A DNA stretch of 64,000 bases from an uncultured Acidobacteriota bacterium (GTDB lineage Bacteria > Acidobacteriota > Thermoanaerobaculia > Multivoradales > JAHEKO01): the NCBI GenBank assembly GCA_963713825.1, contig CAVQNG010000005.1:352001-416000 (forward strand), in the 5' to 3' direction. The translations under genes were made by a program, and so were the position numbers. Each line of letters starts with the position of its first letter. Positions within the stretch are counted from its first letter, which is position 1. Below the pieces are notes generated by a model. The model saw only the letters and a program-made list of their open reading frames with translations, searched no databases and had not been told where the DNA came from. This document shows positions 5,775-45,234 of the stretch, one piece after another.

Positions 5775-7028
5775 GGGTCGCGCTGGTCAGCTCATTCGAT
5801 CGGCGGGGCGGGGCGGGGATAGCTGCCCACAGATTGCATTTGGGATTAAGGGCGTCCGGAATCGAGAGTCAGATGATCGTTCAGTTTCGCGATTCGGATG
5901 ACCCTTCCGTCGTTGGTCCTGTGAACAAACTGGAGAGGATGTACCAGAACGTCGGCGAAGCTGTGGATCGAGTGCCACTTGCATTGTATCGACAGAAGTC
6001 CCGGAGTCTTTCTGTCTGCAATGGCTCCCAGGCAGTGGGCGTAAGCGGATCGAGCGGAGCAAGCCTGAGATCGTCAATCTGCACTCGTTTGGAGGCGGAT
6101 TCTTGAGTTTGGGAAGCGTGGCTCGGGTTGGGGTTCCGATCGTATGGACCATGCACGACAAGTGGTGCCTTTCCGGAGGTTGCCACTTCTCCGGCACGTG
6201 TAGGGCTTATTCTGAATGTTGTGGGCGCTGTCCAATCCTCGGGAGTAGATTCTCTTGGGATCTCTCACGATGGGTTTGGAAGAGAAAGAAGCACCTCTAT
6301 TCAAGAAAACTCATCTGCTTTGTGACCCCGAGCCAGTGGTTGGGCTCAAGAGGCTCGACAGAGTTCTCTATTGGGAGGTGCCCGAGTTGAGGTTATTCCG
6401 AACGGGATCGACCTCGATCGGTTCTGTCCGGTCGAGAAACGCGCTGCCCGTGAGGTACTTGGATTGGACCCGGATTCGCCCGTAGTCCTTTTCGGTGCGG
6501 AATCTGCGGCGGTCGACGATCGCAAAGGGCACCAGTTCCTGTCGCCGACACTTGCTTCGCTGGGAGCTCTGAACCTACCGAGGCCGGTGAAGTTGCTTGT
6601 TTTCGATGCCGGTTTCGATTCGAAGGCAATGTAGAACAACCTTATGAAGTGAAATTTCTGGCCGCCTCGAAGACGATCTAGCCTTGAAGATCGCCTACTC
6701 TGCCGCAGATGTGTTTCTTTGCCCCTCGACGGAGGACAATCTGCCAAACACCGTTGTCGAGGCGATGGCCTGCGGGACCCCAACAGTTGCATTCTCTGTC
6801 GGTGGACTTCCAGAGCTTATCGATCAGGGGAGAACAGGCTATTTGGCGGAACCTTTTGATGTGCAAGATTTGGCAAAGGGTATATTGGATGTTCTTCTCA
6901 ATCCTGAGTTTGCACGCGAGGCGCGAGCAAAGGCGGTTCGTGAGTTCGATGCCAGCCTCCAGGCCAGCCGATACGATGCTCTCTTTCAGGAGTTAATTGC
7001 CAGTAGTAGTCGATCGAGCAGTGGCTGA
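5771..7028 (+). pseudogene. GT4-family glycosyltransferase broken into several frames
   Basis: Consecutive fragments read GGAGIAAHRLH, IVNLH, VWTMHD.W..SGGCH, VTPSQWL, VIPNGID, AYSAADVF..PS.EDNLPNTVVEAMACGTP. Frameshifts at about 6000, 6342, 6620 and 6660. Confidence 0.8.
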
Positions 7029-14419: not shown

Positions 14420-15631
14420 GTGCGGCAAGGACTCCGCTTCTCCCCACCTTCAATTGATGTACCCGCGGAAGTCGATTGGCTTCTTCTACGGGCTCTTGGG
14501 CGTGAGTTCACTGCCTGGGATGAAACGGGGACTCTCGATCCCAAGGGACTTTCCGAACTTGCGGGGGCAGTCGGACTACTTGGCCGAGTACGAGCTCGTT
14601 GGCCTCGTGAGAAGCTGGTTCCCGAGCTGGGTGCCGGCTTGTTGGAAGAGGCAGACAGGGCTATTCACCGGATTGCGGCGAACGAGCTGCTTCAAGAAAG
14701 GGTGTCCTCACAGATTGCCGGCATGGCCAGCGAAGAGGGAGAACCCTCCATCTTCCTGAAAGGCCTGGCGCTCCGATTGGGAGGCCATTCGATTGCGGGA
14801 GCTCGCCAAGCAAGTGACATCGATGTGTTGGTACCGCGTGACGCTGCCGAGTCTCTGTCTCGGACTCTCATCCAGGAGGGGAGCACCAAGCTCGAAATCC
14901 AGCCGCAAGAGCATCACCTTCCGCCGTTGGACCATCCGCTGGGAGCGGTAGTGGAGATTCATGTGGACCTTCGAGGGGTCAATCTGGAGGGGAGAGGAGC
15001 AGCCACAGCCGAAGAGTGCATCAGCTCAGGCCAATGCCGAGCTCTCGAAGGGTGGCCCGAGGGGACCTACATTCCGGATTCGAGCCTTTTGATGGCCCAC
15101 CTACTTGTACATGGCCTCGGACAACACGGTTTCTCACCGGGGGCATACCCATTGATACAACTCTTGGCTGACCTGCAGGATTTGGGCTTCACCGGCGAGC
15201 AGGGTGAGCGATTCATGGAGGAAGGTCTCCTCTGGATCCAGAATGAAGTCTCTCAAGAGGAAGTGGCAGGGACCAGAGATCTGTTGCGCCAGCTGGAAGA
15301 GGGCGAGAGGGCTTCCGAGATCGTGGTTAGGGACGTTGCCGCCGCCTTGATTCTCAAGCACATGTTGGCTGGATCGATGGATGCCGAGTATCGACAGTCT
15401 CTGAAGCTCTCTGCTGTTACCCGACCTTCGATCGCGCGTCCGGGTCTGACGGGTCTTCTTCGCAACATGAGTAGTGCGATCTTCTTGACGAGAGGTCAGA
15501 TCGACGTGATCTACGGACAGCCACAGACCGAGGTTGGCTATCTCGCTAGAAGGCTGTGGCGCCCCTTCGATCTCGTGGGCCGAACCCTCAAGACCTTGCA
15601 GGCCAAGAAGAAGCTTCGATTCCGCGAATAG
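14420..15631 (+). CDS. Nucleotidyltransferase family protein (NTP_transf_5; PadeN/PsmN-like)
   Basis: IFLKGLAL...GARQASDIDVLV (LKG...R...DxD) and VVEIH, followed by a helical LLVH region. Confidence 0.75.
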   Translation: MRQGLRFSPPSIDVPAEVDWLLLRALGREFTAWDETGTLDPKGLSELAGAVGLLGRVRARWPREKLVPELGAGLLEEADRAIHRIAANELLQERVSSQIAGMASEEGEPSIFLKGLALRLGGHSIAGARQASDIDVLVPRDAAESLSRTLIQEGSTKLEIQPQEHHLPPLDHPLGAVVEIHVDLRGVNLEGRGAATAEECISSGQCRALEGWPEGTYIPDSSLLMAHLLVHGLGQHGFSPGAYPLIQLLADLQDLGFTGEQGERFMEEGLLWIQNEVSQEEVAGTRDLLRQLEEGERASEIVVRDVAAALILKHMLAGSMDAEYRQSLKLSAVTRPSIARPGLTGLLRNMSSAIFLTRGQIDVIYGQPQTEVGYLARRLWRPFDLVGRTLKTLQAKKKLRFRE

Positions 15632-17637: not shown

Positions 17638-18066
17638 CTATTTCGATAGCAGGGGCAGGAAGCGCTCCCCGATGGCCTCCGGCTCGTTCATGGGCTTGCC
17701 GGTCAGCTCGAGCCAGGCGTGGGCCTCCAAATCGCCCCCCTGTTTCTGGACGCCGATCTTGAGCTCAGCCTCGACGCCGCGCTTGCGGAGCATTCTTTGC
17801 CGTGTCAGTGAGCGCTCGAGGCACTGCATGCGCCACAAATGATTGTTGGCTGCCGCATCGACGCACCAAGCGAGGCGAGAGTAGTCCTCTCGAGTCGCTT
17901 CCTCTGTCTGTGGTGTCTCGATGACAGGTACCCGAGCCCACGTCTCGACGGCAGGGAACGGTCGTGTTCGCAGCGCCACGCGGAACCCCAGCAGGAGTAT
18001 CCAGGCTTCCACCAGCCAGCGTCTCTCAGCCCAGGTCAGACCAAGGATCTGCTCAGTCTTGCTCAT
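17638..18066 (-). CDS. Lasso peptide leader peptidase (B2 protein, transglutaminase-like)
   Basis: 142 aa; QCLERS (catalytic Cys), LKIGV, EAHAWLE (catalytic His); coupled to a PqqD gene. Confidence 0.9.
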   Translation of the reverse strand: MSKTEQILGLTWAERRWLVEAWILLLGFRVALRTRPFPAVETWARVPVIETPQTEEATREDYSRLAWCVDAAANNHLWRMQCLERSLTRQRMLRKRGVEAELKIGVQKQGGDLEAHAWLELTGKPMNEPEAIGERFLPLLSK

Positions 18067-18325
18067 GCACGATCTCGAGGAGGCCCTGGTCGCAGAGCTC
18101 CTGCGTCAGTGATTGGAGGTCTCGCTGGAGTCGAGCACCGTCTACCTCGAACTCGTCCAGGAGGTCGAAGGCGGCTTGTTCCAGCGTCCCGTGCTTTTCC
18201 AGGGCCAGCCACATGCGTGTGCCGACGTCGTCGAGGCCAAAATAGAAGCCGGTGGAGAGGTTCAGAAGAACAGTCTCGTTCTCCAACTCTCGAAAGACGA
18301 CCTGTTCTGGTACTTTGACTCGCAC
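18053..18325 (-). CDS. RiPP recognition element (PqqD family, lasso B1)
   Basis: 90 aa; ETVLLNLSTGFYFGLDDVGTRMW...EFEVD...DL..L...GLL. GTG start with GGAGA upstream. Confidence 0.9.
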   Translation of the reverse strand: MRVKVPEQVVFRELENETVLLNLSTGFYFGLDDVGTRMWLALEKHGTLEQAAFDLLDEFEVDGARLQRDLQSLTQELCDQGLLEIVHEQD

Positions 18326-18421
18326 TGCATTCTCCGTGATCGGGTGGCGGCTTCCCGGGTAGGATAGCAGCGCATGCTGACAACATGCGGAGGACTATCG
18401 ACAGTACCGAGGTTTTGAATC

Positions 18422-19240
18422 GTGACGACAGAAGGCAAGAAGAAGGAAGTGGGAACGTGGTGGGTATCCGGCTTGCGTGTCGCTAGCGATCGCCCGCTGA
18501 TCGAAGTCGAACCGAGCAGTGACCAAGACGTGGATCTGCAAGTGCTGTTTCGGGCTGATCCGGGGAGCGAGGTCGATGTCGGAGTGCTTTCCTCGGCCGA
18601 CAGCTCAGGCGACTGGTTCAAGTTGATGGATAAGGACGCAGCGCTGGCGTGGATCCGCGCTGACGGGCGATTGGCCCTGGTCGCGGAGGGCGAGGCGTTG
18701 GTCCGCGGTTTCGATGCATTGGTTCGACGGGTCGTGCCTTTCGCAGCTGCTTTGCAGGACCGGGTTGTACTCCACGCCTCGTCGGTCCTTGCTGATGACG
18801 GTGTGCATGCGTTTATCGGTGCCAGTGGCGCTGGCAAGTCGAGCCTCGCGGAGTGCCTGGGCGATCAGGGGTTCCCCGTTCTGTCGGATGATCTGTTGCT
18901 GTGCCTACCGACCGATACCGGGATCGTGATCCCGCGCCCAGGGCAGGATGAAGACGACGAGTCGGGGCCCGCACTCGCCGCCGTCTATTTCGTCGAGCGT
19001 GAGGTGGCGCTCGACAAGATCGATCTCCAGGAGATGGCTGAGGAGGAGTGTTTCAAAGGTCTGCTGCAGCACGGTTTCGGAGAGTTGAGTGTTCCGAAGA
19101 TCTGGGCAGCCCAGTTCGAGCTCTACTCGATCATCTCGGAGCAGTGCAAAGCCTACCGGCTGCGGCTCCCCGATTCTCTGGGACGGCTCGCAGAGTCCGC
19201 TGAGACCTTGGCTCGAGGCTGGAGCCCGGTCCAAGATTGA
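18422..19240 (+). CDS. HPr-kinase-related kinase (PadeK/PsmK-like lasso tailoring kinase)
   Basis: VVLHAS...IGASGAGKSS (Walker A)...VLSDD is the HprK-like His / P-loop / DD signature. Confidence 0.8.
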   Translation: MTTEGKKKEVGTWWVSGLRVASDRPLIEVEPSSDQDVDLQVLFRADPGSEVDVGVLSSADSSGDWFKLMDKDAALAWIRADGRLALVAEGEALVRGFDALVRRVVPFAAALQDRVVLHASSVLADDGVHAFIGASGAGKSSLAECLGDQGFPVLSDDLLLCLPTDTGIVIPRPGQDEDDESGPALAAVYFVEREVALDKIDLQEMAEEECFKGLLQHGFGELSVPKIWAAQFELYSIISEQCKAYRLRLPDSLGRLAESAETLARGWSPVQD

Positions 19241-19262
19241 CCCCTTCGCCAACCCAGCCGAC

Positions 19263-21203
19263 ATGAGTGGCATCGCCGGAATCGTGCATTGGGATGGTCG
19301 CCCAGTGGCGGATGGCGATCTCGGACGCATGCTGGGGGCGATCCGCCACCGCGGGCCCGATGGCCTGGTAGGAGAGGTCACAGAGTCGGTGGCGCTCGGA
19401 CAGGCGAGGCTCGCAATGCGGGCTGAGGAGCGAGAGCACACCCAGCCGGTGTGGCTGCCAGACCGCTCTTGCGCCATCGTGGCGGACGCCAGGCTCTACA
19501 ACCGGGAAGAGCTTCTGAGCGATATGGCTGGCGCGAATCGGATCGCCGGCCCGGCTTCGGATGCTGCGCTTCTTCTCGCGGGTTACGAGCGCTGGGGCGT
19601 CGAGGTGCTTCAGCGCCTCAATGGTGACTTCGCTTTCGCCATCTGGGACTCGTCGAAACAGCAGATCTTCGCGGCTCGGGATCCGTTCGGAGCCAAGCCA
19701 TTCGTATTCTGGTCCGGCAGCGACACGTTTCGATTCGGTTCCGAGCCGAAGCAGCTCCTGATCTTCCCCGAAGTGCCGGTTGAGCCCGAGAGTCAGACCG
19801 TCGTCGAGCATCTTCTGGACTTGCCAAAGGCTCGGGAGCTGACCTTCTTCCGTGGGGTGCATCGGCTGCGGGCCGCGCACTTCCTGGTGGCTTCTGCCGA
19901 CGGCATCGCCCAGCGCACCTATTGGCACCCAGAGAGCCTCGGTCTTCTCGAGCTGTCTTCAGAGGAAGAGGCCTTCGATCGCTTTCGCGCTTTGTTCAAG
20001 CAGTCCATCGCAAGTCGACTCGGGACCGACGGGTCTGTCGGTGCGCAGCTGAGCGGAGGTTTGGACTCCTCATCGGTGGCTGCCATGGCGGCGGAGATCT
20101 ACGGCGACGCAGGCGAGGATCTGCCCCAGCTGGAGACCATTTCGGAAACCTATGCGAGTTTTCCCTGCGACGAGACTCCTTACATCGAAACGATGGCCGA
20201 GTGGCTTCCTTTTCCCTCTCGTCGGATCGATTGCTCGGAATTCGATTTCGCCTCGTCGATCGAGACGGAGGTCTGGAATGAAGATGGGCCGACCGCAGAG
20301 CTGACCCCGGACCGGACCCGGAGCAACTCCGAGGTGTTGTCGAGTTTCGATGCGCGGATCCTGATGACCGGGTATGGAGGGGATGAGCTGACCTGGGATC
20401 CGGAATGGGCTCCCGACCTGCTGAAGCAGGGTCGGGTGCTGTCGGCCTTGGAGCAGTCCTGGCAGCTGAGCCGTTTACCGGAAGAGGATGCCTTGCCGTC
20501 GATCCTCAAGAGGGCGATCGTGCAATCAATACCCGAGAGCCTGAGGGCGTCCTTGGCAGCGATACGTCCGCGAAGGACCCTGGAGTGGCCCGTTCACCTG
20601 CAGCCTGATCTGCTTCGCCCTATCGGAGATGTCGAAGAGCCCCTCGAGTCGAGGAACACGTCCTTCTCGTCTGCCCAGCGAACCGTCCTCCGATGGCTCA
20701 CCGACCCTCTGCTGTATTGGAATCTGGAACGGCTCGAACAGCGGTACGCGTTCTGGGGCGTGGAGATGAGGCATCCCTTCTTCGACAGAGGATTGGCCGA
20801 GTTGGTTCTGACCACTCCGTTCGAACGTAGGGTCGCTCCGCCCAGCAGGCGCAAGGCGCTGCTGCAAGAGGCTATGCAAGGGATCCTGCCGCCAGAGATT
20901 CTCCGGCGGCGCAGTCAGGTCGTGTTCGACTCCTACTTCCAGGAGGCCTGGCGGCAGTGGCAGCCACGTTTGAGGGCAGTGATCCACTCCTCAGATGCAT
21001 GGCTCTCTGAGCCCTATACTGATCGAGAGACAGTCCTCTCGTGGCTGGAATCACCGGCCCGGGATGAGACGATGCCGATGCGGGTGCTGTCGCAGGTCTG
21101 GGCAGCCTTGGGTCTGGAGGTTTGGCTCAGGGGCCTTGGTCGCTACTCGGCTGCGGAGTATGATGATGCATCGCAATCGCTGGGAGATGAAGACCATGCC
21201 TGA
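19263..21203 (+). CDS. Lasso peptide cyclase (asparagine-synthetase-like C protein)
   Basis: Starts MSGIAG at ATG 19263 (AsnB has MCGIAG). HRGPDG, GDFAFAIWD, ARDPFGAKP, LSGGLDSS, TGYGGDE, RHPFFD. Flanked by B1/B2 genes and a precursor. Confidence 0.88.
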   Translation: MSGIAGIVHWDGRPVADGDLGRMLGAIRHRGPDGLVGEVTESVALGQARLAMRAEEREHTQPVWLPDRSCAIVADARLYNREELLSDMAGANRIAGPASDAALLLAGYERWGVEVLQRLNGDFAFAIWDSSKQQIFAARDPFGAKPFVFWSGSDTFRFGSEPKQLLIFPEVPVEPESQTVVEHLLDLPKARELTFFRGVHRLRAAHFLVASADGIAQRTYWHPESLGLLELSSEEEAFDRFRALFKQSIASRLGTDGSVGAQLSGGLDSSSVAAMAAEIYGDAGEDLPQLETISETYASFPCDETPYIETMAEWLPFPSRRIDCSEFDFASSIETEVWNEDGPTAELTPDRTRSNSEVLSSFDARILMTGYGGDELTWDPEWAPDLLKQGRVLSALEQSWQLSRLPEEDALPSILKRAIVQSIPESLRASLAAIRPRRTLEWPVHLQPDLLRPIGDVEEPLESRNTSFSSAQRTVLRWLTDPLLYWNLERLEQRYAFWGVEMRHPFFDRGLAELVLTTPFERRVAPPSRRKALLQEAMQGILPPEILRRRSQVVFDSYFQEAWRQWQPRLRAVIHSSDAWLSEPYTDRETVLSWLESPARDETMPMRVLSQVWAALGLEVWLRGLGRYSAAEYDDASQSLGDEDHA

Positions 21204-21357
21204 CAACTATCGCGACCCGAAAAGAAACCAAAGCGGCTCGAAGACTCGCAAACCCTACAACAAGCCCGAGCTGAAGAAGCACGGCCACATGGCCGACGTC
21301 ACCCAGAAGAGCGGTAACAACTTCGACAATAGCCAACAGTGGCAGTCGAAGAAGTAG
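21196..21357 (+). CDS. Lasso peptide precursor, 53 aa; predicted core KSGNNFDNSQQWQSKK
   Basis: GGAG at 21183-21186 precedes ATG 21196, which overlaps the cyclase stop. Translation MPDNYRDPKRNQSGSKTRKPYNKPELKKHGHMADVTQ-KSGNNFDNSQQWQSKK contains YxxPxLxxxGxxxxxT. Asp at core position 7. Confidence 0.85.
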   Translation: MPDNYRDPKRNQSGSKTRKPYNKPELKKHGHMADVTQKSGNNFDNSQQWQSKK

Positions 21358-21379
21358 TAGGTCTCTCGCCGCTTGGCGC

Positions 21380-22198
21380 ATGCCTCGCACGCCCCTTACA
21401 GCACGACTCTTCTGCTTTTCCGATGGCGTTTTCCGCCAGGTCAATTCTGCGATCTTGGCCCTTTATCAGGGCTTCTGGTTGGGTTGGATGGGATCGAAGT
21501 CCCTGAACGAAGCGACTCGCCTCTACTACGCGGGACGATCGAAGTACCTGGACTCCGAGTACAACACCTCAGGCTTGAAGGACTGGGAGGCTCGTATCGC
21601 GGATCGCTACTTCAGCGACTGTCGGACCTTGCTCGTCGGTGCTGTTGGTGGCGGGAGAGAAGCGGTGGCTCTGGCCGAGAGAGGAAAGGCTGTTACGGCC
21701 TTCGAATGCTCCGCAGAACTGGCCCAGAGTGCCCGTGATGTGCTTTCCAGAGAGGGACTGATTGCCGAGGTGATGACGGTGGCCCCCAGCGAGGTGCCAA
21801 GTCTCGACACCTGTTTCGATGGAGCTGTGGTGGGCCTGGGTGGCTACATGCACATCCCGGGCAAGGCCGTCAGAGTGCGCTTCCTCCAGGATCTTCGAGA
21901 TCGGGTCGAGTCTGGAGCGCCGCTGCTACTCTCCTTCTTCACCCGCACTCCCGACTCTCGGTTCTTCCTCTGGAGCCGAAGGGTGGCCCGTTTCATTCGC
22001 CGACTTCGATTCAGCCGGGAGGAGGTGGATCTGGGGGACGCGGTGGACAGGTCCTTCGACCATCACTTCACGCAGGAAGAGATTGCCGCTGAGCTGGCCG
22101 CCGCCGGCTTCGAGCTGGTCGACTACGGCGAGGACCCGATAGGCCATGCCGTGGGCCTGGCTACACGTGTGATTCCTCGAACTGCTCCTCTTCGGTAG
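21380..22198 (+). CDS. Class I SAM-dependent methyltransferase-like protein
   Basis: [20 protein letters not shown] (motif I and acidic residue), FDGAVVG..GYMHIP. Its 3' end overlaps aceA convergently. Confidence 0.7.
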
Positions 22199-23447
22199 AG
22201 CCCTGGATGGCCGATAGAACGTCGCTCTGGGTGATGAGAGTGGTGATCAGGTCGAAGTAGCCGGCCCCCACTTCACGCTGGTGCTTGGTGGCGGTGTAGC
22301 CGCTGGTTTCGGCTGCGAACTCCTGCTCCTGGAGCTCCACGTAGGCCGCCATCTGCCGTGCCTTGTAGCCCTTGGCCAGCTCGAACATGACGTAGTTCAA
22401 GGAGTGGAAACCGGCCAGGGTGATGAACTGGAAGCGGTAGCCCATTGTCGCCAACGCGCGCTGGAACTTGGCGATGGTCGCATCGTCCAGGTTCTTTTTC
22501 CAGTTGAAGGAGGGTGAGCAGTTGTAGGCCAGGGGCTTGCCTGGGAACTTCTCGTGGATGGCGTCGGCGAACTGCTGCGCCTCGTCCAGGTCCGGATGGG
22601 CGGTCTCGCACCAGATAAGGTCGCAGTAGGGAGCGTAGGACAGGCCCCGCCCGATGGCCTGCTCCAGGCCGGCCTTGACCATGTAGAGGCCTTCGATGGT
22701 CCTCTCTTGACTGACCAGGAAGGGATGGTCGCGCTCGTCCACGTCAGAGGTGAGCAGACTGGCAGCATTGGCGTCGGTGCGGGCGATCAGCACGGTCGGC
22801 ACGCCCATGACATCGGCTGCCAGGCGAGCCGCTACCAGTTTCTCGATCGCATGGCCGGTGTGGACCAGCACCTTGCCGCCCATGTGTCCGCACTTCTTGG
22901 CGGAGGAGAGCTGATCTTCGAAGTGCACGCCCGCCGCCCCGGCCTCGATCATCGCTTTCATGAGCTCGAAGGCGTTGAGCACGCCGCCGAAGCCGGCTTC
23001 GGCATCAGCCACGATGGGCTTGAACCAATCCACGGATTCGTCGCCTTCGGAGTGGTGGATCTGATCGGCCCGCTGCAAGGTGTTGTTGATCTTGCGCACG
23101 AGGGCCGGAGCCGAATCGGCGGGGTAGAGGGACTGGTCGGGGTACATGGCCCCCGCTTCGTTGGCGTCGGCGGCGACCTGCCAGCCGGAGCAGTAGATGG
23201 CGTTCAGTCCGGCCTTGACCTGCTGCATGGCCTGATTGCCGGTCACGGCGCCCAGGGCGTTGACGAAGTCCTCCTCGTGAAGGGAGCGCCACAGTTTCTC
23301 CGCGCCGACGCGAGCCAGCGTGTACTCGATCTGCAGACTTCCCCTGAGGCGAATGACATCTTCGGCCGTGTAGGGGCGCTCGATGCCCGCCCATCGTGGG
23401 TCCTCGTTCCATTCCTTCTTCAGCTGGGCAGCTGTTGGTTGGGTCAT
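22161..23447 (-). CDS. aceA: Isocitrate lyase
   Basis: KKCGHMGGK catalytic motif, [34 protein letters not shown]. Confidence 0.97.
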
Positions 23448-25385: not shown

Positions 25386-26012
25386 GTGTTGGTCACGGTG
25401 TCCCAAACAACGCATGAAAAGCTGCTTCTGGAGGCCACGGCGCTCTTTGCGCGTCGCGGCTACGGAGGAGCCTCCATGTCCGAGATCGCCGAGCGTGTCG
25501 GTGTGCGCAAGGCGAGTCTCTACAACTATTACGATTCGAAGGCGGATCTACTGATGGACCTTCTGGGCCGGAGTCTCGCTGCTTGGGAGATGGCGAGTCG
25601 ACCCGCACTCGAAGGGCCTGGCACTACCGAGGAGCGCCTCGGGGCCTACCTGAAGGCAGCGACGGCTTTTGCCGACCGCAACCCGCAGGCCGTGGGTATC
25701 GTACGTATGGCTGCTACCCAGGTCGGGGGCGAGTTGCGCGGCCAGGTGAACGATCTGCTGACCGAGCACGAGCAGGCTTCACGAGGCCGGGTGGTCGACT
25801 TCTTCGCTGAGGCAGTGGAGAAGGGGGAGATCGAACCGGCAGCGCCGGAAGAGCTCGCCCTCTTTCTAGCGACCTTTCTCCACGGCCTGCTGATCAGCCA
25901 GATTCTCGCCACCAGCAAAGCGCATGAATTCAAGGATCACCTTCCCCAGTTGTGGGAGTTCTTTTGGCGGGGTGTCAGCGGGAGGAAGCCCCAGATGGAG
26001 TTCGAACAATGA
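25386..26012 (+). CDS. TetR/AcrR family transcriptional regulator
   Basis: ALFARRGYGGASMSEIAERVGVRKASLYNYYDSKADL helix-turn-helix. Confidence 0.92.
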   Translation: MLVTVSQTTHEKLLLEATALFARRGYGGASMSEIAERVGVRKASLYNYYDSKADLLMDLLGRSLAAWEMASRPALEGPGTTEERLGAYLKAATAFADRNPQAVGIVRMAATQVGGELRGQVNDLLTEHEQASRGRVVDFFAEAVEKGEIEPAAPEELALFLATFLHGLLISQILATSKAHEFKDHLPQLWEFFWRGVSGRKPQMEFEQ

Positions 26013-27364
26013 ATCGTTATCTCGGTGTGATGGGAATCCTCTGCCTTCTCGCCTTGCCTGTGGCGGCTGCGGAGGAGGTTCTGGATCTGGAGCGGGCCAT
26101 CGATCTCGCTCTGCAGAACAATCCGTTCCTGAAGTCGATCGAGGAGAGGCGCCACCAGGTGGAGGCAGGAGTCAGGGAAGCCTGGGCCGATGTCTATCCG
26201 CAGGTGGCATTCCGGGGCGGCTGGAATCGCTCGCGCAACCCCTCGCTGCTCAATAGCGCGGATTTCGAAGACCTGATCGAGCTGTTTCCGGACTACAGTC
26301 CTCAGCAGCAGGACCTCTACAACCTGGGGTTCGATTTGTCGCAGCCGATCTATCACGCCGGCAAGATCGGCGCCGGGATCAAGCTTGCGAAGCTGGTCGT
26401 GGAGATCACCGACGCGCAAATAGCCTCGGCTCAACTGGATGCCGGGCTGATCGCCTCGGAGACGTACTTCCGGGTTCTGGAGTCCCGTGAGGGCTTGGCG
26501 ACGATCGAGATCCAGCGACAGGCGCGACAGGAGTCGCTGGCTGTCGTCCAGACACGATACGACCTGGGAGATGCCACCGAGCTGGAGATGCTGCAGGCCA
26601 AGGCCGCTCTGGCCGAGCTCGATCCGATCATCGACCGGGCCAGAGGCGCTGTACGGGTCGCCATTATCGATCTCAAGGCGGTGCTCAACCTCGACGCCGA
26701 TCCGAACGTGCAGGAGGTCGAGGACCCGCTGCCGGCCATGCCGGAGAAGGACAGGACACTGATGTTCGCCCTCGACACCCGGCCAGAATTCGACGATCTG
26801 GAGCTTCAATTGGACGCCTACGACAAGCAGAAGAGGATCGTCAAAGCGGACCAACTACCACAGATCGACCTCAACGGGCTCTATGGGCACACGGTTCGAG
26901 TGCCGGAGAACTGGAATGATCCGCTGTACTCCGACTGGGCCGTGGCCATCGGTCTGCGATGGGAGTTCTTCAATGGCGGGCGGGTCAAATCGCAGGTGGC
27001 GGGCCTGGAGAGCCAGAAGCAGCAGGTGGCGTGGGAGTTGGAGGCGCTGTTCAATCGAGTGGAGCAGGAGGTCGAATCTGCGATCACCGAATACTCGGCA
27101 GCTTTGTCCCAGTGGGCGGCGGCTGAGATTTCCGTCCAGGCAGCCCGCGAGGCGAGTCGTGTAGCTCGGGAGAGTTACGAAGAGGGAGTGGCCCTGCAGA
27201 CCGATTGGTTGACCGCGCAGGAGCGCGAAATCTCGGCCGAGGTGGTGCGGGTGCAGTCGTATTACGGAGCCAGGACCAGCGTCGCCCGCCTTGCCAGAGC
27301 GGTCGGCTTGCAGGCGGACGAAGTCTGGCAATTTACTGGACACGATACGGGAGAGCAACCATGA
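26009..27364 (+). CDS. TolC-family outer-membrane efflux protein
   Basis: Start overlaps the tetR stop (ATGA). Signal peptide; LDLERAIDLALQNNP, YPQV, LPQIDL and coiled-coil repeats. Confidence 0.88.
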   Translation: MNRYLGVMGILCLLALPVAAAEEVLDLERAIDLALQNNPFLKSIEERRHQVEAGVREAWADVYPQVAFRGGWNRSRNPSLLNSADFEDLIELFPDYSPQQQDLYNLGFDLSQPIYHAGKIGAGIKLAKLVVEITDAQIASAQLDAGLIASETYFRVLESREGLATIEIQRQARQESLAVVQTRYDLGDATELEMLQAKAALAELDPIIDRARGAVRVAIIDLKAVLNLDADPNVQEVEDPLPAMPEKDRTLMFALDTRPEFDDLELQLDAYDKQKRIVKADQLPQIDLNGLYGHTVRVPENWNDPLYSDWAVAIGLRWEFFNGGRVKSQVAGLESQKQQVAWELEALFNRVEQEVESAITEYSAALSQWAAAEISVQAAREASRVARESYEEGVALQTDWLTAQEREISAEVVRVQSYYGARTSVARLARAVGLQADEVWQFTGHDTGEQP

Positions 27365-28419
27365 AGCGTTGGCACGGGAAATGGATTTTGGCCCTGTTGC
27401 CGCTGTCGGTACTGATCGCCTGTGGCGGAGGTGGTGAAGCGGATTCGTCGGAACCGGTGTTGGCGCCGGCAGAGCGGGTGGCTTATGTGAGGTCTCTCGA
27501 GGTGCAACCGGAGGAGATCACGGATCTGGCGCTTTTGAGTGCCGACCTGTTGCCCTTGCGGCGGGCGACCCTGGCGGCAGAGGTGCCCGGAAGAGTCGAA
27601 GAGCTGAGAGTCGATGTGGGGGATCGCGTCCGAACGGGCCAGATTCTGGTCAGGATCGACACTCGGGCGTTGCGTCAGCAGATCGCCGAAGCGGAAGCGC
27701 TGCATGTGCAGGCCGTGGATCGATTCGAGCGGGCAGAGCGACTCTATGAGAAGCGCTCCATCACGAAAGAGCGGCATATCGATGCCGTGGCAGGTAAGGA
27801 TGTGGCCGAGGCGCGTCTGAATTCGGCGCAGCTGGCGCTCGCCAAGTCGGAGCTCAAGGCGCCCTGGGCAGGCAGCGTGGCCGCCAAACGGGTCGAGGTC
27901 GGGGACTATGCCTCGCCGGGTCTCCCCTTGTTGGAGCTCGTAGCGGTGAATCGTTTGAAGGTGAAGGCGTCGGCGTCGGCCTCCGACGTTCCCTACCTGA
28001 GCGTCGGGGCGCCGGTGACGGTCCGTGTCGATGTCTTCCCCGGTGAGGAGTGGCAGGGCAAGGTGGTTCGACTCGGTGCCGAGCTCGACTCCGATACGCG
28101 TACGCTGGTAGTGGAAGCGGAGATCGACAACAGCGAGGGCCGGCTTCGCCCGGGCCTCTTCGGGCGGCTCGAGGTGCCACGCAGGGTGCTTCCCGGAGCT
28201 CTGCTCGTGCCGCTGGCCTCGGTGGTGGACTACGAGAGCGAGAAGATCCTCTACGTGGTCGCCGAAGGTGTCGCGCAGAGGCGGACCATCGTGCTGGGCC
28301 CGACCGTTGGGGACCGAGTAGTGATCGCCAGCGGCCTCGAGCCAGGTGACCACGTCGTCGTCGGTGGCCAGCAGCAAGTGGCCGACGGACAGACGGTGAT
28401 CGAGGCGGAGGAGGGCTGA
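27361..28419 (+). CDS. RND efflux periplasmic adaptor (MFP), lipoprotein
   Basis: Lipobox LIAC; AEVPGRVEEL..DVGDRV..GQ.L, LKAPWAG, LRPGLF, GLEPGD.VV. Confidence 0.9.
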   Translation: MKRWHGKWILALLPLSVLIACGGGGEADSSEPVLAPAERVAYVRSLEVQPEEITDLALLSADLLPLRRATLAAEVPGRVEELRVDVGDRVRTGQILVRIDTRALRQQIAEAEALHVQAVDRFERAERLYEKRSITKERHIDAVAGKDVAEARLNSAQLALAKSELKAPWAGSVAAKRVEVGDYASPGLPLLELVAVNRLKVKASASASDVPYLSVGAPVTVRVDVFPGEEWQGKVVRLGAELDSDTRTLVVEAEIDNSEGRLRPGLFGRLEVPRRVLPGALLVPLASVVDYESEKILYVVAEGVAQRRTIVLGPTVGDRVVIASGLEPGDHVVVGGQQQVADGQTVIEAEEG

Positions 28420-28422
28420 CAA

Positions 28423-31400
28423 GTGCGATTGACGGAGCTATCCCTAAGCAACCGGGTGACGGTCTTCTTCCTGATGGCGGCAGTCATCTTCGCCGGTCTG
28501 ACGGCCTACCGCACGCTACCGAGAGAGTCCTACCCGGACATCGAGATACCCCTGATCATCGTTTACACGATCTATCCGGGGGCGGCGCCCGGCGACGTCG
28601 AAAAGCAGGTCACCGACCAGTTGGAGCGCGAGCTCAAAGGTCTCGAGGGGATCAAGGAGATCACCTCGACATCGCAGGAGAGCGCTTCGGTCATTACGGT
28701 GGAGTACATCTCGGGCACCGATATCGACATGGCGCTGCAGAAGGTCCGCGATCGCGTCGACCTTGCCAAACCCGACCTGCCAACGGACGCGGAAGAGCCG
28801 ATCTTGCAGGAGATCAGCTTCTCGGATATTCCGATCATCCAGGTCAATCTGTCGGGTGATGTGGGGCCAGTGGTCCTCAAGGATCTGGCCGAAGATCTGC
28901 AGGACGAGCTCGAGGGCATTCGGGGTGTCTTGAAGGTCGACCTGGTGGGCGGCCTGGAGCGTGAAGTCAGGGTCGATGTGAACCCAGAGAAATTGCGGCA
29001 GTACGGGTTGGCCCTGTCCGATGTGGTCGACACCATCGGCGACGAGAACGTCTCCATTCCAGGTGGTGACATGGATCTCGGGTCGCAGTCGTTTGCAGTC
29101 CGCGTTCCTGGTGAGGTCGTCGATCCGCTGATGATCGGTGATTTCGTGATCAAGGCCAGAGGTGGTCAGCCGATCTTCGTCAACGATGTGGCAACGGTTT
29201 CCTTCGGCTTCAAGGACAGGGACTCCTTCGCCCGCATCAACGGCAGGGAGTCGGTGGCCCTCGCGGTATCGAAGCGCACCGGTGCCAACGTCATTGAAGT
29301 TGCCGATGCGGTCAAGGAGCAGGTAGCGATCTACCAAGCCCAGTGGCCGGGTGGTGTGGAGGCGACGATCCTCGGCGATCAGAGCAAGGACATCCGCCGG
29401 ATGGTCAAGGACCTGGAGAACAACATCCTCTCCGGCCTCGTTCTCGTTGTGGTGGTATTGATGTTCGCTCTGAATTTCAGGAACGCTCTCTTTGTCGGTC
29501 TGGCGATTCCGTTCTCGATGCTCCTGACCTTTCTCGCCGTGCAGATATGGGGCGAAACGCTCAACATGGTGGTCTTGTTTGCGCTCATTCTGGCAGTGGG
29601 CATGTTGGTGGACAACGCCGTTGTCGTGATCGAGAACATCTATCGCCACATGCAGGAGGGCAAGGGCCGCATGGAGGCGGCCTCCATCGCGACCAAGGAG
29701 GTCGGGTCGGCGATCTTCTTCTCCACGTTGACGACGCTGGCGGCCTTCTCGCCACTGTTCTTCTGGCCGGACATCGTCGGCGACTTCATGTGGTTCCTCC
29801 CTTTTACTGTCTGTCTGGCTCTTACGGGTTCTCTTCTCGTCGCCTTCACGGTCAACCCGACCCTGGCGGCGACCTTCATGCGGGTCAAGGAAAAGGACCG
29901 AAGGGTCGCTGGAGACGAGCCCGATTCCGGGAACGGTTGGCAGGGCGTGATCGGTGGGTTCGTCGTCAAGATGTACAAGGGTACGCTCAGTTGGGCCCTC
30001 GACCACCGGCTGGTCGTGATCCTCGGCACTGTAGGAGCCTTTGTCGGAGTCTTCTTCCTCTTTGGCGTCTTCAATCACGGAGTGGAGTTCTTCCCCGAGA
30101 CGGAGCCCACCCAGATCATTGTCGATGTGGAGATGCCCCCGGGGACGCGGATCGAAGTGACCGACACGGTCGTCCGCGAGCTGGAGCGCCGCTTGTCCGA
30201 CCTGCCCGATGTCCGGGTGATGGCGGCAGGAACTGGAGCCGGAGCCCAGAGCGAGTTCCGCGCGGGAGGCTCGGGCAGTGGCACATCCGGGCGAATCATG
30301 CTGGACCTGTTGGACCGCGGAGATCGAGAGCAGAACTCGTTCGAGACCCTCGAGCAGGCCAGGGAGCTGGTCAAAGGAGTCCCAGGTGCGGTCATCAATG
30401 TCGACCGCCCCGAGGAGGGTCCGCCGGTCGGCGATCCAGTTTCCATCGAGTTGACCGGCGAAGATTTCGAGACCCTGGGAGCGATCTCGCGGCAGATCCG
30501 CAAGGAGATCGAAGACATCCCGGGCCTGGTGTCGCTGGACGACGACTTCGACCTGGCCCGGCCCGAGCTAGTTGTGCGCCTCGACCGGACCGAGGCCTCG
30601 AGGTTGGGACTCACCACAGCCAAAGTGGCCTCGATGATGCGCACCGCGATCAACGGGACTGAAGCTTCGACCTACCGCGATGGTGACGACGACATCGACA
30701 TCACGGTGCGCTTGCAGGAACAGTCGCGTGGATCGTTGGCCGACATCGCTCGACTCACGGTGGTGACGGAAGGCGGCAGCCAGATACCCATTTCTGCGAT
30801 AGCCAATGTCGAGCAGTCCGCATCGCTCACCAGTATTCGCCACAAGGACCACAAGCGGGTCGTGACGGTCAGTGGCAAGGTCACCACCCCAACGATGGCC
30901 GAACCCGTCCGATCCGAGGCGGTGCGCCGAATCGATGCCACTCCGGATCTGCTGCCGATGGGCTATTCGATGAGCTTCGGCGGTCAGAGCCAGGACGAGG
31001 ACGAGGCCAAGGAGTTTCTGACTTCTGCCTTCCTCTACGCCGTGCTGATGGTCCTCGGTCTCATGGTGGCGAAGTTCGACTCGATCGCTCTGCCTGTCAT
31101 CGTCATCACCACGGTCATCATGTCCATGATCGGGGTACTGCTGGGGCTCATGCTCACCGGCTTGCCATTCGGCATCATCATGACCGGTCTGGGCGTGATC
31201 TCGCTGGCCGGCATCGTGGTCAACAACGCAATCGTTCTCCTCGATTACGGGGAGCAGCTGGGGGCCACCGGCCTGCCACGGCGTGAGCTCATCATGACGA
31301 CCGGCCTACGTCGTTTGCGGCCCGTGCTGTTGACGGCCATCACCACCATCCTGGGGCTCATTCCGCTGTCCACCGGCTTCGAGTTCGATTTCACCGAGTT

Positions 31401-31614
31401 CCACTTCTCCAGTGGAGGAGAGAGCAGCCAGTGGTGGAAGGGGATGGGTGTAGCGGTGATCTTCGGTCTCGCCTTCGCCACGTTCCTGACGCTGGTGGTG
31501 CTGCCCGTGCTCTACGACTTCCTCTTGCAGTTGCGAGAGCGCAAGGCCCGGAAGAAGAGACCCCAGCCCGAGCCGGTCGAGGCCATCGGCGAAGAGCGGG
31601 AACAGGTGGCCTGA
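28423..31614 (+). CDS. RND efflux permease (AcrB/AcrD/AcrF family)
   Basis: 1063 aa; YPGAAP.DVE, GMLVDNAVVVIENI, GIVVNNAIVLLD, RLRPVLLTAITTILG. Confidence 0.95.
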   Translation: MRLTELSLSNRVTVFFLMAAVIFAGLTAYRTLPRESYPDIEIPLIIVYTIYPGAAPGDVEKQVTDQLERELKGLEGIKEITSTSQESASVITVEYISGTDIDMALQKVRDRVDLAKPDLPTDAEEPILQEISFSDIPIIQVNLSGDVGPVVLKDLAEDLQDELEGIRGVLKVDLVGGLEREVRVDVNPEKLRQYGLALSDVVDTIGDENVSIPGGDMDLGSQSFAVRVPGEVVDPLMIGDFVIKARGGQPIFVNDVATVSFGFKDRDSFARINGRESVALAVSKRTGANVIEVADAVKEQVAIYQAQWPGGVEATILGDQSKDIRRMVKDLENNILSGLVLVVVVLMFALNFRNALFVGLAIPFSMLLTFLAVQIWGETLNMVVLFALILAVGMLVDNAVVVIENIYRHMQEGKGRMEAASIATKEVGSAIFFSTLTTLAAFSPLFFWPDIVGDFMWFLPFTVCLALTGSLLVAFTVNPTLAATFMRVKEKDRRVAGDEPDSGNGWQGVIGGFVVKMYKGTLSWALDHRLVVILGTVGAFVGVFFLFGVFNHGVEFFPETEPTQIIVDVEMPPGTRIEVTDTVVRELERRLSDLPDVRVMAAGTGAGAQSEFRAGGSGSGTSGRIMLDLLDRGDREQNSFETLEQARELVKGVPGAVINVDRPEEGPPVGDPVSIELTGEDFETLGAISRQIRKEIEDIPGLVSLDDDFDLARPELVVRLDRTEASRLGLTTAKVASMMRTAINGTEASTYRDGDDDIDITVRLQEQSRGSLADIARLTVVTEGGSQIPISAIANVEQSASLTSIRHKDHKRVVTVSGKVTTPTMAEPVRSEAVRRIDATPDLLPMGYSMSFGGQSQDEDEAKEFLTSAFLYAVLMVLGLMVAKFDSIALPVIVITTVIMSMIGVLLGLMLTGLPFGIIMTGLGVISLAGIVVNNAIVLLDYGEQLGATGLPRRELIMTTGLRRLRPVLLTAITTILGLIPLSTGFEFDFTEFHFSSGGESSQWWKGMGVAVIFGLAFATFLTLVVLPVLYDFLLQLRERKARKKRPQPEPVEAIGEEREQVA

Positions 31615-39711: not shown

Positions 39712-39712
39712 A

Positions 39713-40332
39713 GGGTTGAGGCGCCCGGCTCACCGCCGGGCGTTCTTTGAGGGCTTGGGGTTGAGGCGGCTGTCGCTAGCTCCAGCCGATCCTTGGGGCT
39801 TGGGTCCTGGGTTCTGTTCAGATGACTACGATCTCGTTGAGGTCCTTCCAGTTGGTCTGTAGGCGCTGACACCTGTTCGTTGTGGAGAGGGTCCGACGTG
39901 GGGCCCCCAGGGGGCTATCCTCCCTTCCACAGCATACAACCCCCTGGAGGTCCCACGCCGAACCCTCCTCGACTGGAGAGACCTCGCACATGGCCTTGCA
40001 CCGTTCTTAGACGAGGATCCACCAAGGGGTCTCCTGAGTCTGCGGCCTGCCCGTCGCAGACTGAGTAGCCGGCGCCGTCCTCCTGCGAACCACCCGGGCG
40101 GAACTCCACAGGAAAGTGACTACCTGCCAAGTCTCCCAAGCCCCCCAAGCCCCCAAGGATCGGTCGGCGAAGTCCCCGAGCGCCTCACCCCCAAGCCCTC
40201 AAGGAACAGCCGGAAGGAACGCCCGGCCGCTTTCACCCCCCACTGCCCCAAAGATCCGCTGGCAGAGAGCCAGCGGCCTCAACCCCAAGCCCCTAAGGAT
40301 CGGCTGGGAGGTACGACCGGACGCCTCAACCC
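39713..40332. repeat. Composite intergenic inverted-repeat element, copy 1
   Basis: Begins GGGTTGAGGCG and ends CGCCTCAACCC. Contains ~46-bp units in opposite orientations at the two ends. 39713-39816 matches 45236-45339 at 94/104 by manual alignment. Confidence 0.8.
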
Positions 40333-45216: not shown

Positions 45217-45234
45217 TCCCCACCCACCCTCCCA

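Follow-up and report, generated by a model that had tools for sequence, protein, structure and literature searches.

At positions 21196-21357 (+ strand), the DNA stretch analysed here (64,000 nt, referred to as the window) carries a real, conserved lasso-type precursor gene within a complete cluster, as confirmed by sequence comparison. We lean towards the reading that the cyclase of this cluster joins the epsilon-amine of the first core residue, Lys1, to the carboxylate of Asp7, and that the neighboring methyltransferase (MT) probably caps the N-terminal alpha-amine freed in this way. Closure through the side chain is favoured because relatives keep the same spacing of lysine and aspartate (K-x5-D) at shifted registers.

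The precursor gene

The precursor ORF encodes 53 aa, comprising a 37-aa leader (21196-21306, + strand) and a core of 16 aa, which ends with the stop codon (21307-21357, + strand). In the list of open reading frames it did not stand alone but formed the end of a 120-aa ORF. A sequence-only reading of the window had called that longer ORF spurious and placed the real start at ATG 21196, and both claims held. A GGAG ribosome-binding site (RBS; 21183-21186, + strand) lies 9 nt 5′ of this ATG, and the ORF overlaps the stop codon of the cyclase gene (TGA, 21201-21203) by 8 nt. Five non-self homologues, with 68-85% identity, were all called at 53 aa. The 65-aa and 120-aa readings from upstream starts were disfavoured on account of the RBS spacing and these homologues.

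The orthologue in locus L110 showed 11 synonymous and 6 non-synonymous codon differences, and 13 of the 18 changes were at third positions. Its RBS region was identical, and the same upstream region was also found in L109. In the same-genus orthologue L006, the GGGAG/RBS and the ATG were kept despite an earlier cyclase stop. The ORF, whose conservation the sequence-only reading had left to be checked, is thus conserved. When the six frames of the 5.4-Mb genome were searched with a regular expression for the leader, 30 matches were obtained, eight of them with a stop within 40 aa; only the precursor ORF and a second copy of it, on contig C32, adjoin lasso genes. A leader profile gave the precursor 34.4 bits and the next genome match 13.1 bits, a comparison that is partly circular because the profile was seeded in part with the precursor's own leader. 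NF033528, the independent NCBIfam model for lasso precursors, matched weakly (E = 0.0012, 18.8 bits, cut-off 33).

Translation bore out the proposed leader register. With the core starting at Lys38, Tyr21 falls at -17, Pro24 at -14, Leu26 at -12, Gly30 at -8 and Thr36 at -2, which gives the YxxPxLxxxG motif and the Thr(-2) of lasso leaders. The codon of Lys1 is at 21307-21309 and that of Asp7 (Asp44 of the precursor) at 21325-21327. Asp7 is the sole acidic residue of the core, as had been claimed, and lies within positions 7-9, where lasso precursors carry Asp or Glu. The C-terminus is Lys-Lys. The predicted mass of the cyclic core is 1876.88 Da, or 1890.90 Da with one methyl group. One RNA run (X1, share 0.05) had no contig over the precursor and is uninformative on transcription either way; two further runs of unrecorded kind covered the stretch, with variant alleles, and are likewise uninformative on transcription. 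A promoter and terminator scan gave nothing above shuffled sequences.

The cluster and its surroundings

Genes for a B2 leader peptidase, an RRE protein, an HprK-like kinase, the cyclase, the precursor and a SAM-dependent MT form the cluster, which lies at the end of a polysaccharide locus. The transglutaminase-like B2 peptidase (17638-18066, - strand; PF13471) matched NF033537 with 89.9 bits (cut-off 33), and its Cys and His-x-Trp motifs are visible in the translation. The B1/RRE leader-binding protein of the PqqD family (18053-18325, - strand) matched PF05402 with 54.7 bits (cut-off 23.4). Both proteins therefore scored above their cut-offs. The HprK-related kinase (18422-19240, + strand; TIGR04352, E = 1.5e-7, below cut-off) has a visible His, Walker A Lys and Asp-Asp; a motif for HprK-like kinases has been described (PMC9266682, in excerpt). 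This kinase is likely a tailoring enzyme.

The 646-aa lasso-type cyclase (19263-21203, + strand) has the asparagine-synthetase fold (PF00733, E = 3e-41). Its best NCBIfam match, NF033535, reached 348 bits, under the cut-off of 525. At its N-terminus Ser replaces the glutaminase Cys, and the ATP motif SGGLDSS is intact. The class I SAM-dependent MT (21380-22198, + strand) matched PF13649 weakly and belongs to an unnamed family. The upstream polysaccharide locus contains an NTP_transf_5 nucleotidyltransferase (14420-15631, + strand; PF14907, 59.9 bits). It is a common companion: the protein cluster with a PF14907 representative spans 34 of 87 loci. No ABC exporter was adjacent to the precursor cluster. 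The 41 ORFs of window positions 1-33700 included no Pfam match to a clostripain-like transpeptidase and no ATP-grasp ligase.

Lys1 and Asp7 as a family trait

We collected cores from MT-anchored loci, namely the best 80 of 99 from the main search plus additional loci. Among the 45 de-duplicated cores obtained, 24 were Lys1/Asp7. Asp7 was present in 24 of 25 de-duplicated Lys-first cores; L040 has Lys1/Glu7. Comparatively, 48 control cores chosen by leader alone included none with Lys1 and none with a sole acid at position 7, whereas 26 had a sole Asp8 and three had K-x5-D. Both Lys and Asp were invariant in all 12 aligned homologues, position 2 is an invariant Ser/Thr, and Thr(-2) was found in 23 of the 24 Lys1/Asp7 cores. 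By these sequence comparisons, Lys1/Asp7 is a conserved family trait.

A cyclase-anchored search, which was blind to the core, had as its three best matches outside the genus loci that were all Lys1/Asp7. They all showed the order kinase-cyclase-precursor-MT, with the MT directly downstream. The 15 weaker loci of this search had no MT match within 1.5-kb flanks. In the cyclase tree, the Lys1 cyclases were on a side of their own (support 97, 20 of 21 rows). A pattern search for Lys1 precursors matched 31 of 401 Bacteroidota genomes, and no lasso genes were found at the 30 loci checked.

The sequence-only reading had asked whether K1, D7, W12 and S14 are conserved. The first two are, but the others are not kept family-wide. 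A Trp anywhere in the tail occurred in one of 24 cores, so the proposed Trp12 plug is not a family trait, although 9 of 12 close homologues have Trp at position 12. Similarly, Ser14 was found in only 5 of 24 cores, and one of the 24 Lys1 cores had a C-terminal Ser. The window core has a tail of 9 residues and 23 of the 24 Lys1/Asp7 cores have tails of 8-12, lengths that are compatible with threading.

K-x5-D at shifted registers

Sixteen of the other 21 MT-anchored cores had K-x5-D at a shifted register, its Lys lying between core positions 3 and 14. The mean over 2000 shuffles was 1.6 and the maximum 6; this test is post hoc because the spacing was first noticed in loci that were later counted. 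Alternative spacings (2-5 and 7-10) were found in 1-3 of the same cores each. Among 19 de-duplicated cores without any Asp or Glu at 7-9, 12 carried K-x5-D (shuffle mean 1.6), and a normal N-terminal ring is therefore impossible in these 12. Two loci with such cores, L061 and L161, had cyclases scoring 754 and 866 bits (NF033535 cut-off 525) and an intact B2. In L061, which comes from Elainella saxicola E1, the pair is Lys5/Asp11. An acid at 7-9 was also present in 7 of 19 shifted cores, and these could close normally.

Out of sample, K-x5-D without an acid at 7-9 was found in four cyanobacterial genomes (G067, G097, G109 and G218) selected by NF033528. None of the four, whose completeness is not given, had an MT match. 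The spacing is therefore not solely an MT-recognition motif, and the MT as the sole cause of K-x5-D was rejected.

No cyclase residue sharply separated Lys1 and shifted cores from canonical ones; the best difference was 0.5. Cyclases of shifted cores lay in parts of the tree other than those of Lys1 cores. As read from the tree, K-x5-D occurs with several cyclase lineages.

The methyltransferase

The MT had 110 homologues at E ≤ 1e-10 and matched no Pfam or NCBIfam family above its cut-off. Structure matches of the predicted model (pLDDT 95.8) were those of a generic Rossmann MT. The top match was 3h2b (Z 20.3). NRMT1 (Z 18.6, rmsd 3.9, 205 aligned), NTM1 and CypM (Z 17.8, rmsd 3.1, 190 aligned) were within the top 20 rows, not above unrelated MTs. 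Neither the fold nor the atlas pointed to a specific chemistry, only to a generic class I MT.

The MT family co-occurs with K-x5-D precursors. In a kinship-aware test of this association, there were five independent pairs, of which about 2.5 went the same way and none the opposite way; the result was not significant (median P = 0.25) and the test was underpowered. The MT also adjoins canonical cores (Gly1/Asp9 in L032 and Ala1/Asp9 in L100) and Lys-free cores (L093, L101 and L104). In the MT tree, 34 of 91 rows lacked a cyclase, B2 and RRE in their vicinity; of the 38 genomes with an MT and no precursor found nearby, 22 had no B2 match. As such MTs have no lasso genes nearby, capping of the alpha-amine cannot be the sole role of the MT. 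Six of 125 small ORFs beside orphan MTs had K-x5-D, and none of them was precursor-like.

A proposed ring through the lysine side chain and its alternatives

The pathway we favour would begin with the RRE binding the leader and B2 cleaving after Gln37, as the motif and the genes suggest and as is known in other lasso systems. Given its fold and intact ATP motif, the cyclase would then adenylate Asp7. The nucleophile would be the Lys six residues upstream of the Asp, to which the register-independent spacing points. The sequence-only reading had proposed a Lys1-Asp7 macrolactam and mentioned in passing that the isopeptide bond could even involve the side chain of the Lys. Its lasso-type precursor, register and conserved Lys1/Asp7 are supported; closure through the alpha-amine is not the reading we prefer, and the passing remark has become the best-supported one. 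The support for an epsilon ring is all comparative. The window core with its Lys1 offers both amines, and the argument for the epsilon-amine is borrowed from the shifted cores.

A ring from the Lys epsilon-amine to Asp7 would have 26 atoms. Closure from the alpha-amine gives 25 atoms with Asp8, 26 with Glu8 and 22 with Asp7; the 25 atoms of an 8-residue lasso ring agree with a figure legend (PMC13352647, in excerpt). Because a 26-atom ring is similar to the common 8-residue rings, ordinary 8-ring cyclases could accept it, and this would explain K-x5-D in several cyclase lineages. The MT would methylate the alpha-amine, which would protect it and possibly steer closure to the epsilon-amine. This is the weakest step, and taken alone it falls somewhat short of probable. 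Threading of the ring by the 9-residue tail is possible, and Trp12 is a putative plug in the window subfamily; the invariant Ser/Thr2 may be the target of the kinase. It is doubtful, on present comparisons, that these clusters represent a widespread lasso branch, in which a Lys side chain would be stapled to Asp(+6), the ring threaded, an N-terminal arm of 0-13 residues left free, and the alpha-amine blocked by a dedicated MT that switches the nucleophile.

It is also possible that the product is an ordinary lasso peptide of class II that has a 22-atom alpha-amine Lys1-Asp7 ring and that the cores with shifted K-x5-D are a different case. Lys1 would then be kept as the target of the MT (epsilon-N-methylation), for the P1′ preference of B2 or for activity. 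The standard register with its Thr(-2), the separate lineage of the Lys1 cyclases and the MT directly downstream in 3/3 cyclase-anchored Lys1 loci all suit this explanation. In the parts of the sources available, the fusilassin pathway tolerates substitutions at position 1 (bioRxiv 2020.11.25.399105), huascopeptin has an alpha-linked Gly1-Asp7 ring (cited in PMC12427821), and RODEO/LassoPred assigns ring 7 to Lys1-Asp7 cores. We nevertheless consider it rather unlikely. It does not account for the reappearance of the same MT family and the six-residue spacing in cores that allow no canonical ring (12/19), or for Asp7 being fixed in 24/25 Lys-first cores while it is the sole acceptor in 0/48 controls. 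Textbook cyclase chemistry and the fixed spacing could both be accommodated if all K-x5-D cores lost 2-13 residues, by a second cut or by aminopeptidases stopping at Lys, and then formed an alpha-amine Lys1-Asp7 ring. However, the residues preceding the shifted Lys share no Thr(-2) motif or other common pattern, and the canonical Thr(-2) site remains present upstream. Among 46 hand-chosen neighbor proteins from 13 loci there was no common extra protease; L095 had one M16 pair. A Gln at the N-terminus tends to cyclise, losing its amine. Gln was the first residue in 10 of 19 shifted cores, compared with 2 of 48 controls, and such cores would resist trimming. In addition, non-specific trimming would have no reason to halt at Lys unless the Lys were already cross-linked. 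Trimming is thus improbable.

We regard as least probable of all that no ring is formed, the cyclase being impaired or acting elsewhere (e.g. on polysaccharide) and the product being a linear peptide that is methylated or phosphorylated, similar to the LPP family. Linear RiPPs with RRE, HprK kinase and NTP transferase are described in capsule loci (PMC13381572, in excerpt), and the window cluster has neither an adjacent exporter nor a cyclase above the NF033535 cut-off. This cyclase also has Gln552 at a column where 16 of 20 Lys1-clade rows have Lys. However, L006 (73% identical), L109 and L110 also have Gln552, which is therefore old, and Lys is likewise missing at this column from 6 of 20 cyclases of the canonical group. 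The cyclase gene is full length with its ATP motif intact, and the invariance of Lys and Asp in the aligned homologues also argues against a linear product.

Relation to known systems and earlier records

Clusters of the paeninodin/pseudomycoidin type have the same gene set (HprK-like kinase, NTP_transf_5, split B1/B2) and leader motif, and they occur within capsular polysaccharide loci (PMC9266682, PMC13381572, both in excerpt). The His-Lys-Asp-Asp motif of their kinase is also found in the window cluster. However, their kinase targets a C-terminal Ser, whereas the window core ends with Lys-Lys, and the window cluster lacks an adjacent ABC exporter. The excerpts of these two descriptions mention neither K-x5-D nor such an MT family. 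Huascopeptin and the xanthomonins, which have 7-residue rings, resemble the window core in the acceptor at position 7 and the short core, as far as the available descriptions go; huascopeptin, in the same descriptions, closes through the alpha-amine of Gly1, whereas the window family has an invariant Lys1 with a second amine.

An isopeptide bond of a Lys epsilon-amine is described for the class V lasso peptides lariocidin B and gelatinamin A (PMC13178200, in excerpt). There, it links Lys2 to the C-terminus through a clostripain-like transpeptidase and is added to an alpha-amine/Asp8 ring. The window cluster has no such peptidase, and the proposed bond would link the Lys and Asp side chains through the cyclase itself. 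Graspetides and microviridins also have side-chain-to-side-chain Lys-Asp/Glu lactams on ribosomal peptides. According to partial sources, they use ATP-grasp ligases, whereas the window cluster encodes a cyclase of the asparagine-synthetase type together with RRE and B2. A SAM enzyme beside a RiPP precursor is likewise known for the C-terminal O-MTs StspM/LasF, the aspartimide-forming PIMT and the N-terminal MTs CypM and NRMT1; the Z-scores of NRMT1 and CypM against the window MT fall in the range usual for MTs in general.

The RODEO/LassoPred table (PMC12214591, supplementary file 3, available in part) lists at least 16 Lys1-Asp7 cores as ring-7 predictions. In it, Asp7 is present in 16 of 17 K-[S/T/V]-[G/D] cores that follow lasso-type leaders, and one Lys-first row has Asp8. 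Among these are Mesorhizobium and Verrucomicrobiota cores identical to those of loci L038, L103, L047 and L055; L038 is from Mesorhizobium prunaredense and L103 from M. delmotii. Bacteroidota are also represented by Lys1 rows. The models assign Lys-first cores an alpha-amine ring-7 and cores of the Q-x-K type a ring-9, in rows without a name or PDB id. The table lacked six probe strings that had been taken from other K-x5-D cores and from the window subfamily. The sequence-only reading called Lys1 atypical for lasso cores, but Lys1-Asp7 cores had already been recorded. By sequence they are recorded and unstudied, and the new point is K-x5-D at shifted registers.

Reviews and papers, as far as their available text goes, define the lasso ring by a bond from the N-terminal amine. 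The literature searched, which lay outside subscription journals and was partly in excerpt, contained neither a natural lasso peptide starting with Lys nor a lasso cyclase that makes a Lys-Asp ring. A Lys1 variant of fusilassin has reportedly been made in vitro. If closure through an internal Lys side chain is true, it would be a new ring type and would break the class definition of an N-terminal macrolactam. The N-terminus would be free for fusion or display, giving a scaffold extendable at both ends. The mining rule of an acid at 7-9 after the cut would mis-assign some clusters and miss others, and a large unnamed MT family would gain a candidate function. If the alpha-amine of Lys1 closes the ring instead, the product would be the first natural Lys1 lasso peptide with a 22-atom ring within the literature searched, a modest new member. 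Clusters with K-x5-D were also found in cultured hosts (Mesorhizobium and Elainella) and are hence directly testable.

Precursor gene and gene cluster

The sequence-only reading had proposed a 53-aa precursor at 21196-21357, and its description held. The start ATG at 21196 has GGAG 9 nt upstream and places the first 8 nt of the ORF over the end of the cyclase gene. Leader residues stand at -17, -14, -12, -8 and -2 relative to Lys38 (core Lys1), and Asp7 is the sole acid of the core. All five non-self homologues (68-85% identity) were called at 53 aa, and six of the seven cluster representatives matching at E<=0.001 were short precursors. Compared with its orthologue in L110, the precursor showed 11 synonymous and 6 non-synonymous codon changes. 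A second copy on contig C32 of the same assembly matched at every one of the 4,990 bases compared. Judged by its conservation, the ORF is a real gene.

The cluster has two divergent arms. The minus-strand arm carries the leader peptidase B2 (17638-18066) and the leader-binding RRE (18053-18325). The plus-strand arm comprises an HprK-like kinase (18422-19240), a full-length cyclase with an intact ATP motif (19263-21203), the precursor and, last, a SAM-dependent methyltransferase (MT, 21380-22198). The top family of the cyclase was NF033535, at 348 bits below the cut-off of 525. Duplicate aside, the genome has a single B2, a single MT of this family and a single strong precursor match. A Wzy-type polysaccharide locus including an NTP_transf_5 gene lies 5′ of the cluster; isocitrate lyase and malate synthase genes lie 3′. 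The precursor is real and lies within a complete lasso-type cluster, which would operate like a paeninodin-type system. The term lasso peptide would by definition depend on the ring nucleophile and threading.

The Lys1/Asp7 family

We searched 61 related genomes with the cyclase, without using the core sequence. The top match (L006) was from the same genus, with a contig end within the leader; the next three (L007, L008 and L009) all had a Lys1/Asp7 core and the order kinase-cyclase-precursor-MT. At 15 weaker loci, 11 precursors were found, every one Gly-, Ala- or Leu-first, and none of the 15 had an MT match in its 1.5-kb flanks.

A second set was anchored on the MT (alignment A2; best 80 of 99 confirmed genome loci kept), with precursors located by a leader-only profile. 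L068 (which repeats the L027 stretch), L109 (almost identical to the window), L067 (matches weak and spurious) and cores below 10 aa were removed, and second-cluster cores in L031, L048 and L055 (three) were assigned to the no-MT set. De-duplication of cores more than 70% alike left 45 MT-locus cores, 24 of which were Lys1/Asp7, including the window's own, three from the cyclase search and one (L111) from the precursor search. These have Ser/Thr2 in 24/24 and Gly3 in 22/24, with positions 4-6 varying freely; named records belong to Acidobacteriota, Pseudomonadota, Verrucomicrobiota, Chloroflexota and Actinomycetota. Lys came first in just one other core, that of L061, where the Lys-Asp pair is Lys5/Asp11. 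At another locus, L040, Lys1 is combined with Glu7 and Thr(-2) is missing. Control cores were chosen by the leader model NF033521 alone (55, or 48 once de-duplicated; two unpublished genomes excluded); among the 48, none was Lys-first, none had its sole acid at position 7 and 26 had a sole Asp8.

The sequence-only reading had singled out four core residues as worth a conservation check. Lys1 and Asp7 recur throughout the 24 family cores; Trp12 (9 of 12 close homologues; Trp in 1/24 family tails) and Ser14 (5/24) were not family-wide. In L031, L047, L048 and L055 the Lys1/Asp7 cluster adjoins a second, canonical-type lasso cluster whose own cyclase is of another lineage.

Lys-Asp spacing is conserved independently of register

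By sequence comparison, the conserved trait is the Lys-Asp spacing, not the register. Among the 21 remaining MT-locus cores, 16 had Lys and Asp exactly six apart (K-x5-D), with the shifted Lys at position 3, 4, 5, 6, 7, 10, 11, 13 or 14 after the Thr(-2) site. In 2000 rounds of shuffling within each core, the count averaged 1.6 and never exceeded 6, against 16 observed, and the eight other spacings occurred 1-3 times; this test is post hoc, because the pattern was first spotted in the same loci. K-x5-D was found in 3 of 29 no-MT cores. There were three control cores with K-x5-D: two were Lys2/Asp8, and only L203 (Lys9/Asp15) lacked an acid at positions 7-9. The L203 genome is one of 2/51 control genomes with an MT match, which is split and about 250 kb away. 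Shifted cores were Gln-first in 10 of 19 cases, versus 2/48 controls.

In the MT and no-MT sets together, 19 cores lacked Asp/Glu at 7-9, K-x5-D being present in 12. The other seven comprised five without a cyclase in the fetched DNA and two with Asp10. Among the 12, the DNA in view at L046 contained no cyclase, and that at L076 a cyclase fragment only. L061 and L161 have cyclases well over the NF033535 cut-off and an intact B2, so textbook machinery adjoins cores unable to form the textbook ring. As an out-of-sample set, 221 cyanobacterial genomes were searched with NF033528, with matches in 14; four (G067, G097, G109 and G218) had K-x5-D cores without a 7-9 acid, and none of these four had an MT match.

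The first core acid of L165, L169 and L247 is at position 10, and 10-residue natural rings are possible there. L171 and L176 (G227:C9 and G115:C42), and also L119 and L123, are cyanobacterial lasso-leader precursors whose cores start with Gln, are rich in Gly/Thr and have no acid at 7-9. Both L171 and L176 are accompanied by B2, RRE, kinase and NTP transferase, with glycosyltransferases at L171 and no cyclase within 15 kb; these are candidate linear glycosylated RiPPs.

Cyclases and methyltransferases

In a quickly built tree of 70 cyclase rows, 20 of 21 Lys1/Asp7 cyclases fell on one side of a 97-supported branch (L050 lay outside, on a long branch), and shifted K-x5-D cyclases were interspersed among canonical ones. 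Actinobacterial members are short cyclases without the N-terminal domain. At least three cyclase types are thus associated with K-x5-D. No cyclase column cleanly marked both K-x5-D groups. Residue 552, at the column that we take to be the catalytic Lys of asparagine synthetase, is Gln in the window cyclase, L006, L109 and L110, Arg in L111 and Lys in 16/20 clade rows; Lys is also missing in 6/20 canonical rows. One cyclase, at L174 (G218:C12), lies beside five tandem RRE-like matches.

MT and motif agreed in 58 of 65 cyclase rows (both 36, neither 22; motif only 5, MT only 2). A kinship-aware test, however, found only five independent pairs; none ran in the opposite direction, and the median p was 0.25. 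The MT accompanied all 24 Lys1/Asp7 cores, in part because it was the anchor by which most of them were found. Two observations speak against a role of the MT in capping the alpha-amine: its predicted structure (pLDDT 95.8) is a generic class I fold, and it also adjoins canonical (L032, L100) and Lys-free cores (L093, L101, L104), where a C-terminal ester would suit better. Of the 91 MT-tree rows, 34 had neither a cyclase nor B2 or RRE in the vicinity. In 38 genomes no precursor was located near the MT, and 22 of these genomes lacked a B2 match. A well-supported Acidobacteriota clade (L065, L066, L069, L070, L072, L073, L078, L082, L085, L086, L090 and L092) had no precursor nearby and no B2 match in the 11 genomes searched. 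An M28 peptidase gene adjoins the MT in another subclade (L079, L080, L084, L094 and L101), and in the related L104 three precursors are rich in Gly and Gln-first, with zero acids.

Ring closure

The sequence-only reading mentioned a Lys side-chain isopeptide in passing. The register-independent spacing now makes it the likelier chemistry, and we lean towards a ring in the window peptide closed through the Lys epsilon-amine. B2 would cut after Gln37, the cyclase would adenylate Asp7 and the epsilon-amine would attack the activated Asp. By our count, alpha-amine rings have 22 (Asp7), 25 (Asp8) or 26 atoms (Glu8), and a Lys(epsilon)-Asp(+6) ring has 26, so a Lys placed six residues before the Asp stands in for the alpha-amine at the most frequent ring size. 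A figure legend in PMC13352647 gives 25 atoms for the 8-aa ring; a passage of PMC12427821 gives 22-23, with which our count disagrees. Such mimicry would let various cyclases adopt K-x5-D with their existing active sites. Capping of the freed alpha-amine would be required, either as pyroglutamate in Gln-first cores or by methylation. With Lys as residue 1, the two amines would compete, and the MT is present; with the alpha-amine far from Asp, the MT can be absent.

An ordinary alpha-amine ring, as the ring is defined in the consulted parts of PMC13352647, PMC12427821, PMC12214591 and bioRxiv 2024.12.31.630886, is rather unlikely for the window peptide. Trimming to the Lys followed by alpha-closure is improbable; no Thr(-2)-like motif preceded the Lys in shifted cores, and no protease was common among the neighbour proteins scanned. 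That no ring forms at all seems more improbable still.

Relation to published predictions

Supplementary file 3 of PMC12214591 was probed by core prefixes. Among the rows so retrieved, K-[S/T/V]-[G/D] cores with a lasso-type leader had Asp7 in 16/17 and Asp8 in 1/17; two more such cores had long non-lasso leaders, a mixed picture came from six rows with different Lys prefixes, and three Q-x-K cores had Asp9, again six apart. The Lys-first and Q-x-K rows retrieved were all modelled as alpha-amine rings and none was named. The Lys1/Asp7 core by itself is thus an already known prediction. Class V lasso peptides differ in having a transpeptidase-made bond from Lys to the C-terminus (PMC13178200, in part). 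The portions consulted also describe lasso MTs and the tailoring of a C-terminal Ser by kinases and nucleotidyltransferases (PMC9266682), capsule-locus clusters and linear relatives (PMC13381572), and position-1 tolerance (bioRxiv 2020.11.25.399105); those of PMC8498205 contributed nothing on Lys1. Neither a natural Lys1 lasso peptide nor a Lys-Asp ring made by a lasso cyclase turned up in the open-access literature searched. The side-chain ring is directly testable.

Other features of the window and genome

Positions 1-22590, covering the polysaccharide locus and lasso cluster, are 99.5% identical to G000:C32:8735-31331. Differences, including small gaps, are concentrated in the 4-8 and 14-18 kb intervals, and 17826-22590 has none; the duplicate is probably a strain haplotype or assembly duplicate. 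A GT1 glycosyltransferase region (5771-7028) is seen only as short ORFs (111, 95 and 114 aa) and differs by gaps between the C5 and C32 copies, possibly through a frameshift or sequencing error. A TetR regulator and an RND efflux set (OEP, MFP, AcrB-like) occupy 25386-31614, with the glyoxylate-shunt genes between them and the lasso cluster, and no evidence links the set to peptide export. Dispersed repeats at about 45200-45750 and 39700-40050 have dozens of copies (78-95%) on several contigs. At G000:C3:1329607-1332434 another RRE is accompanied by an HprK-like kinase and NTP_transf_5, with no B2, cyclase or precursor match nearby; this group may represent a linear RiPP or a remnant. At G000:C11:45434-47768, an asparagine-synthetase-like gene lies in two overlapping frames.
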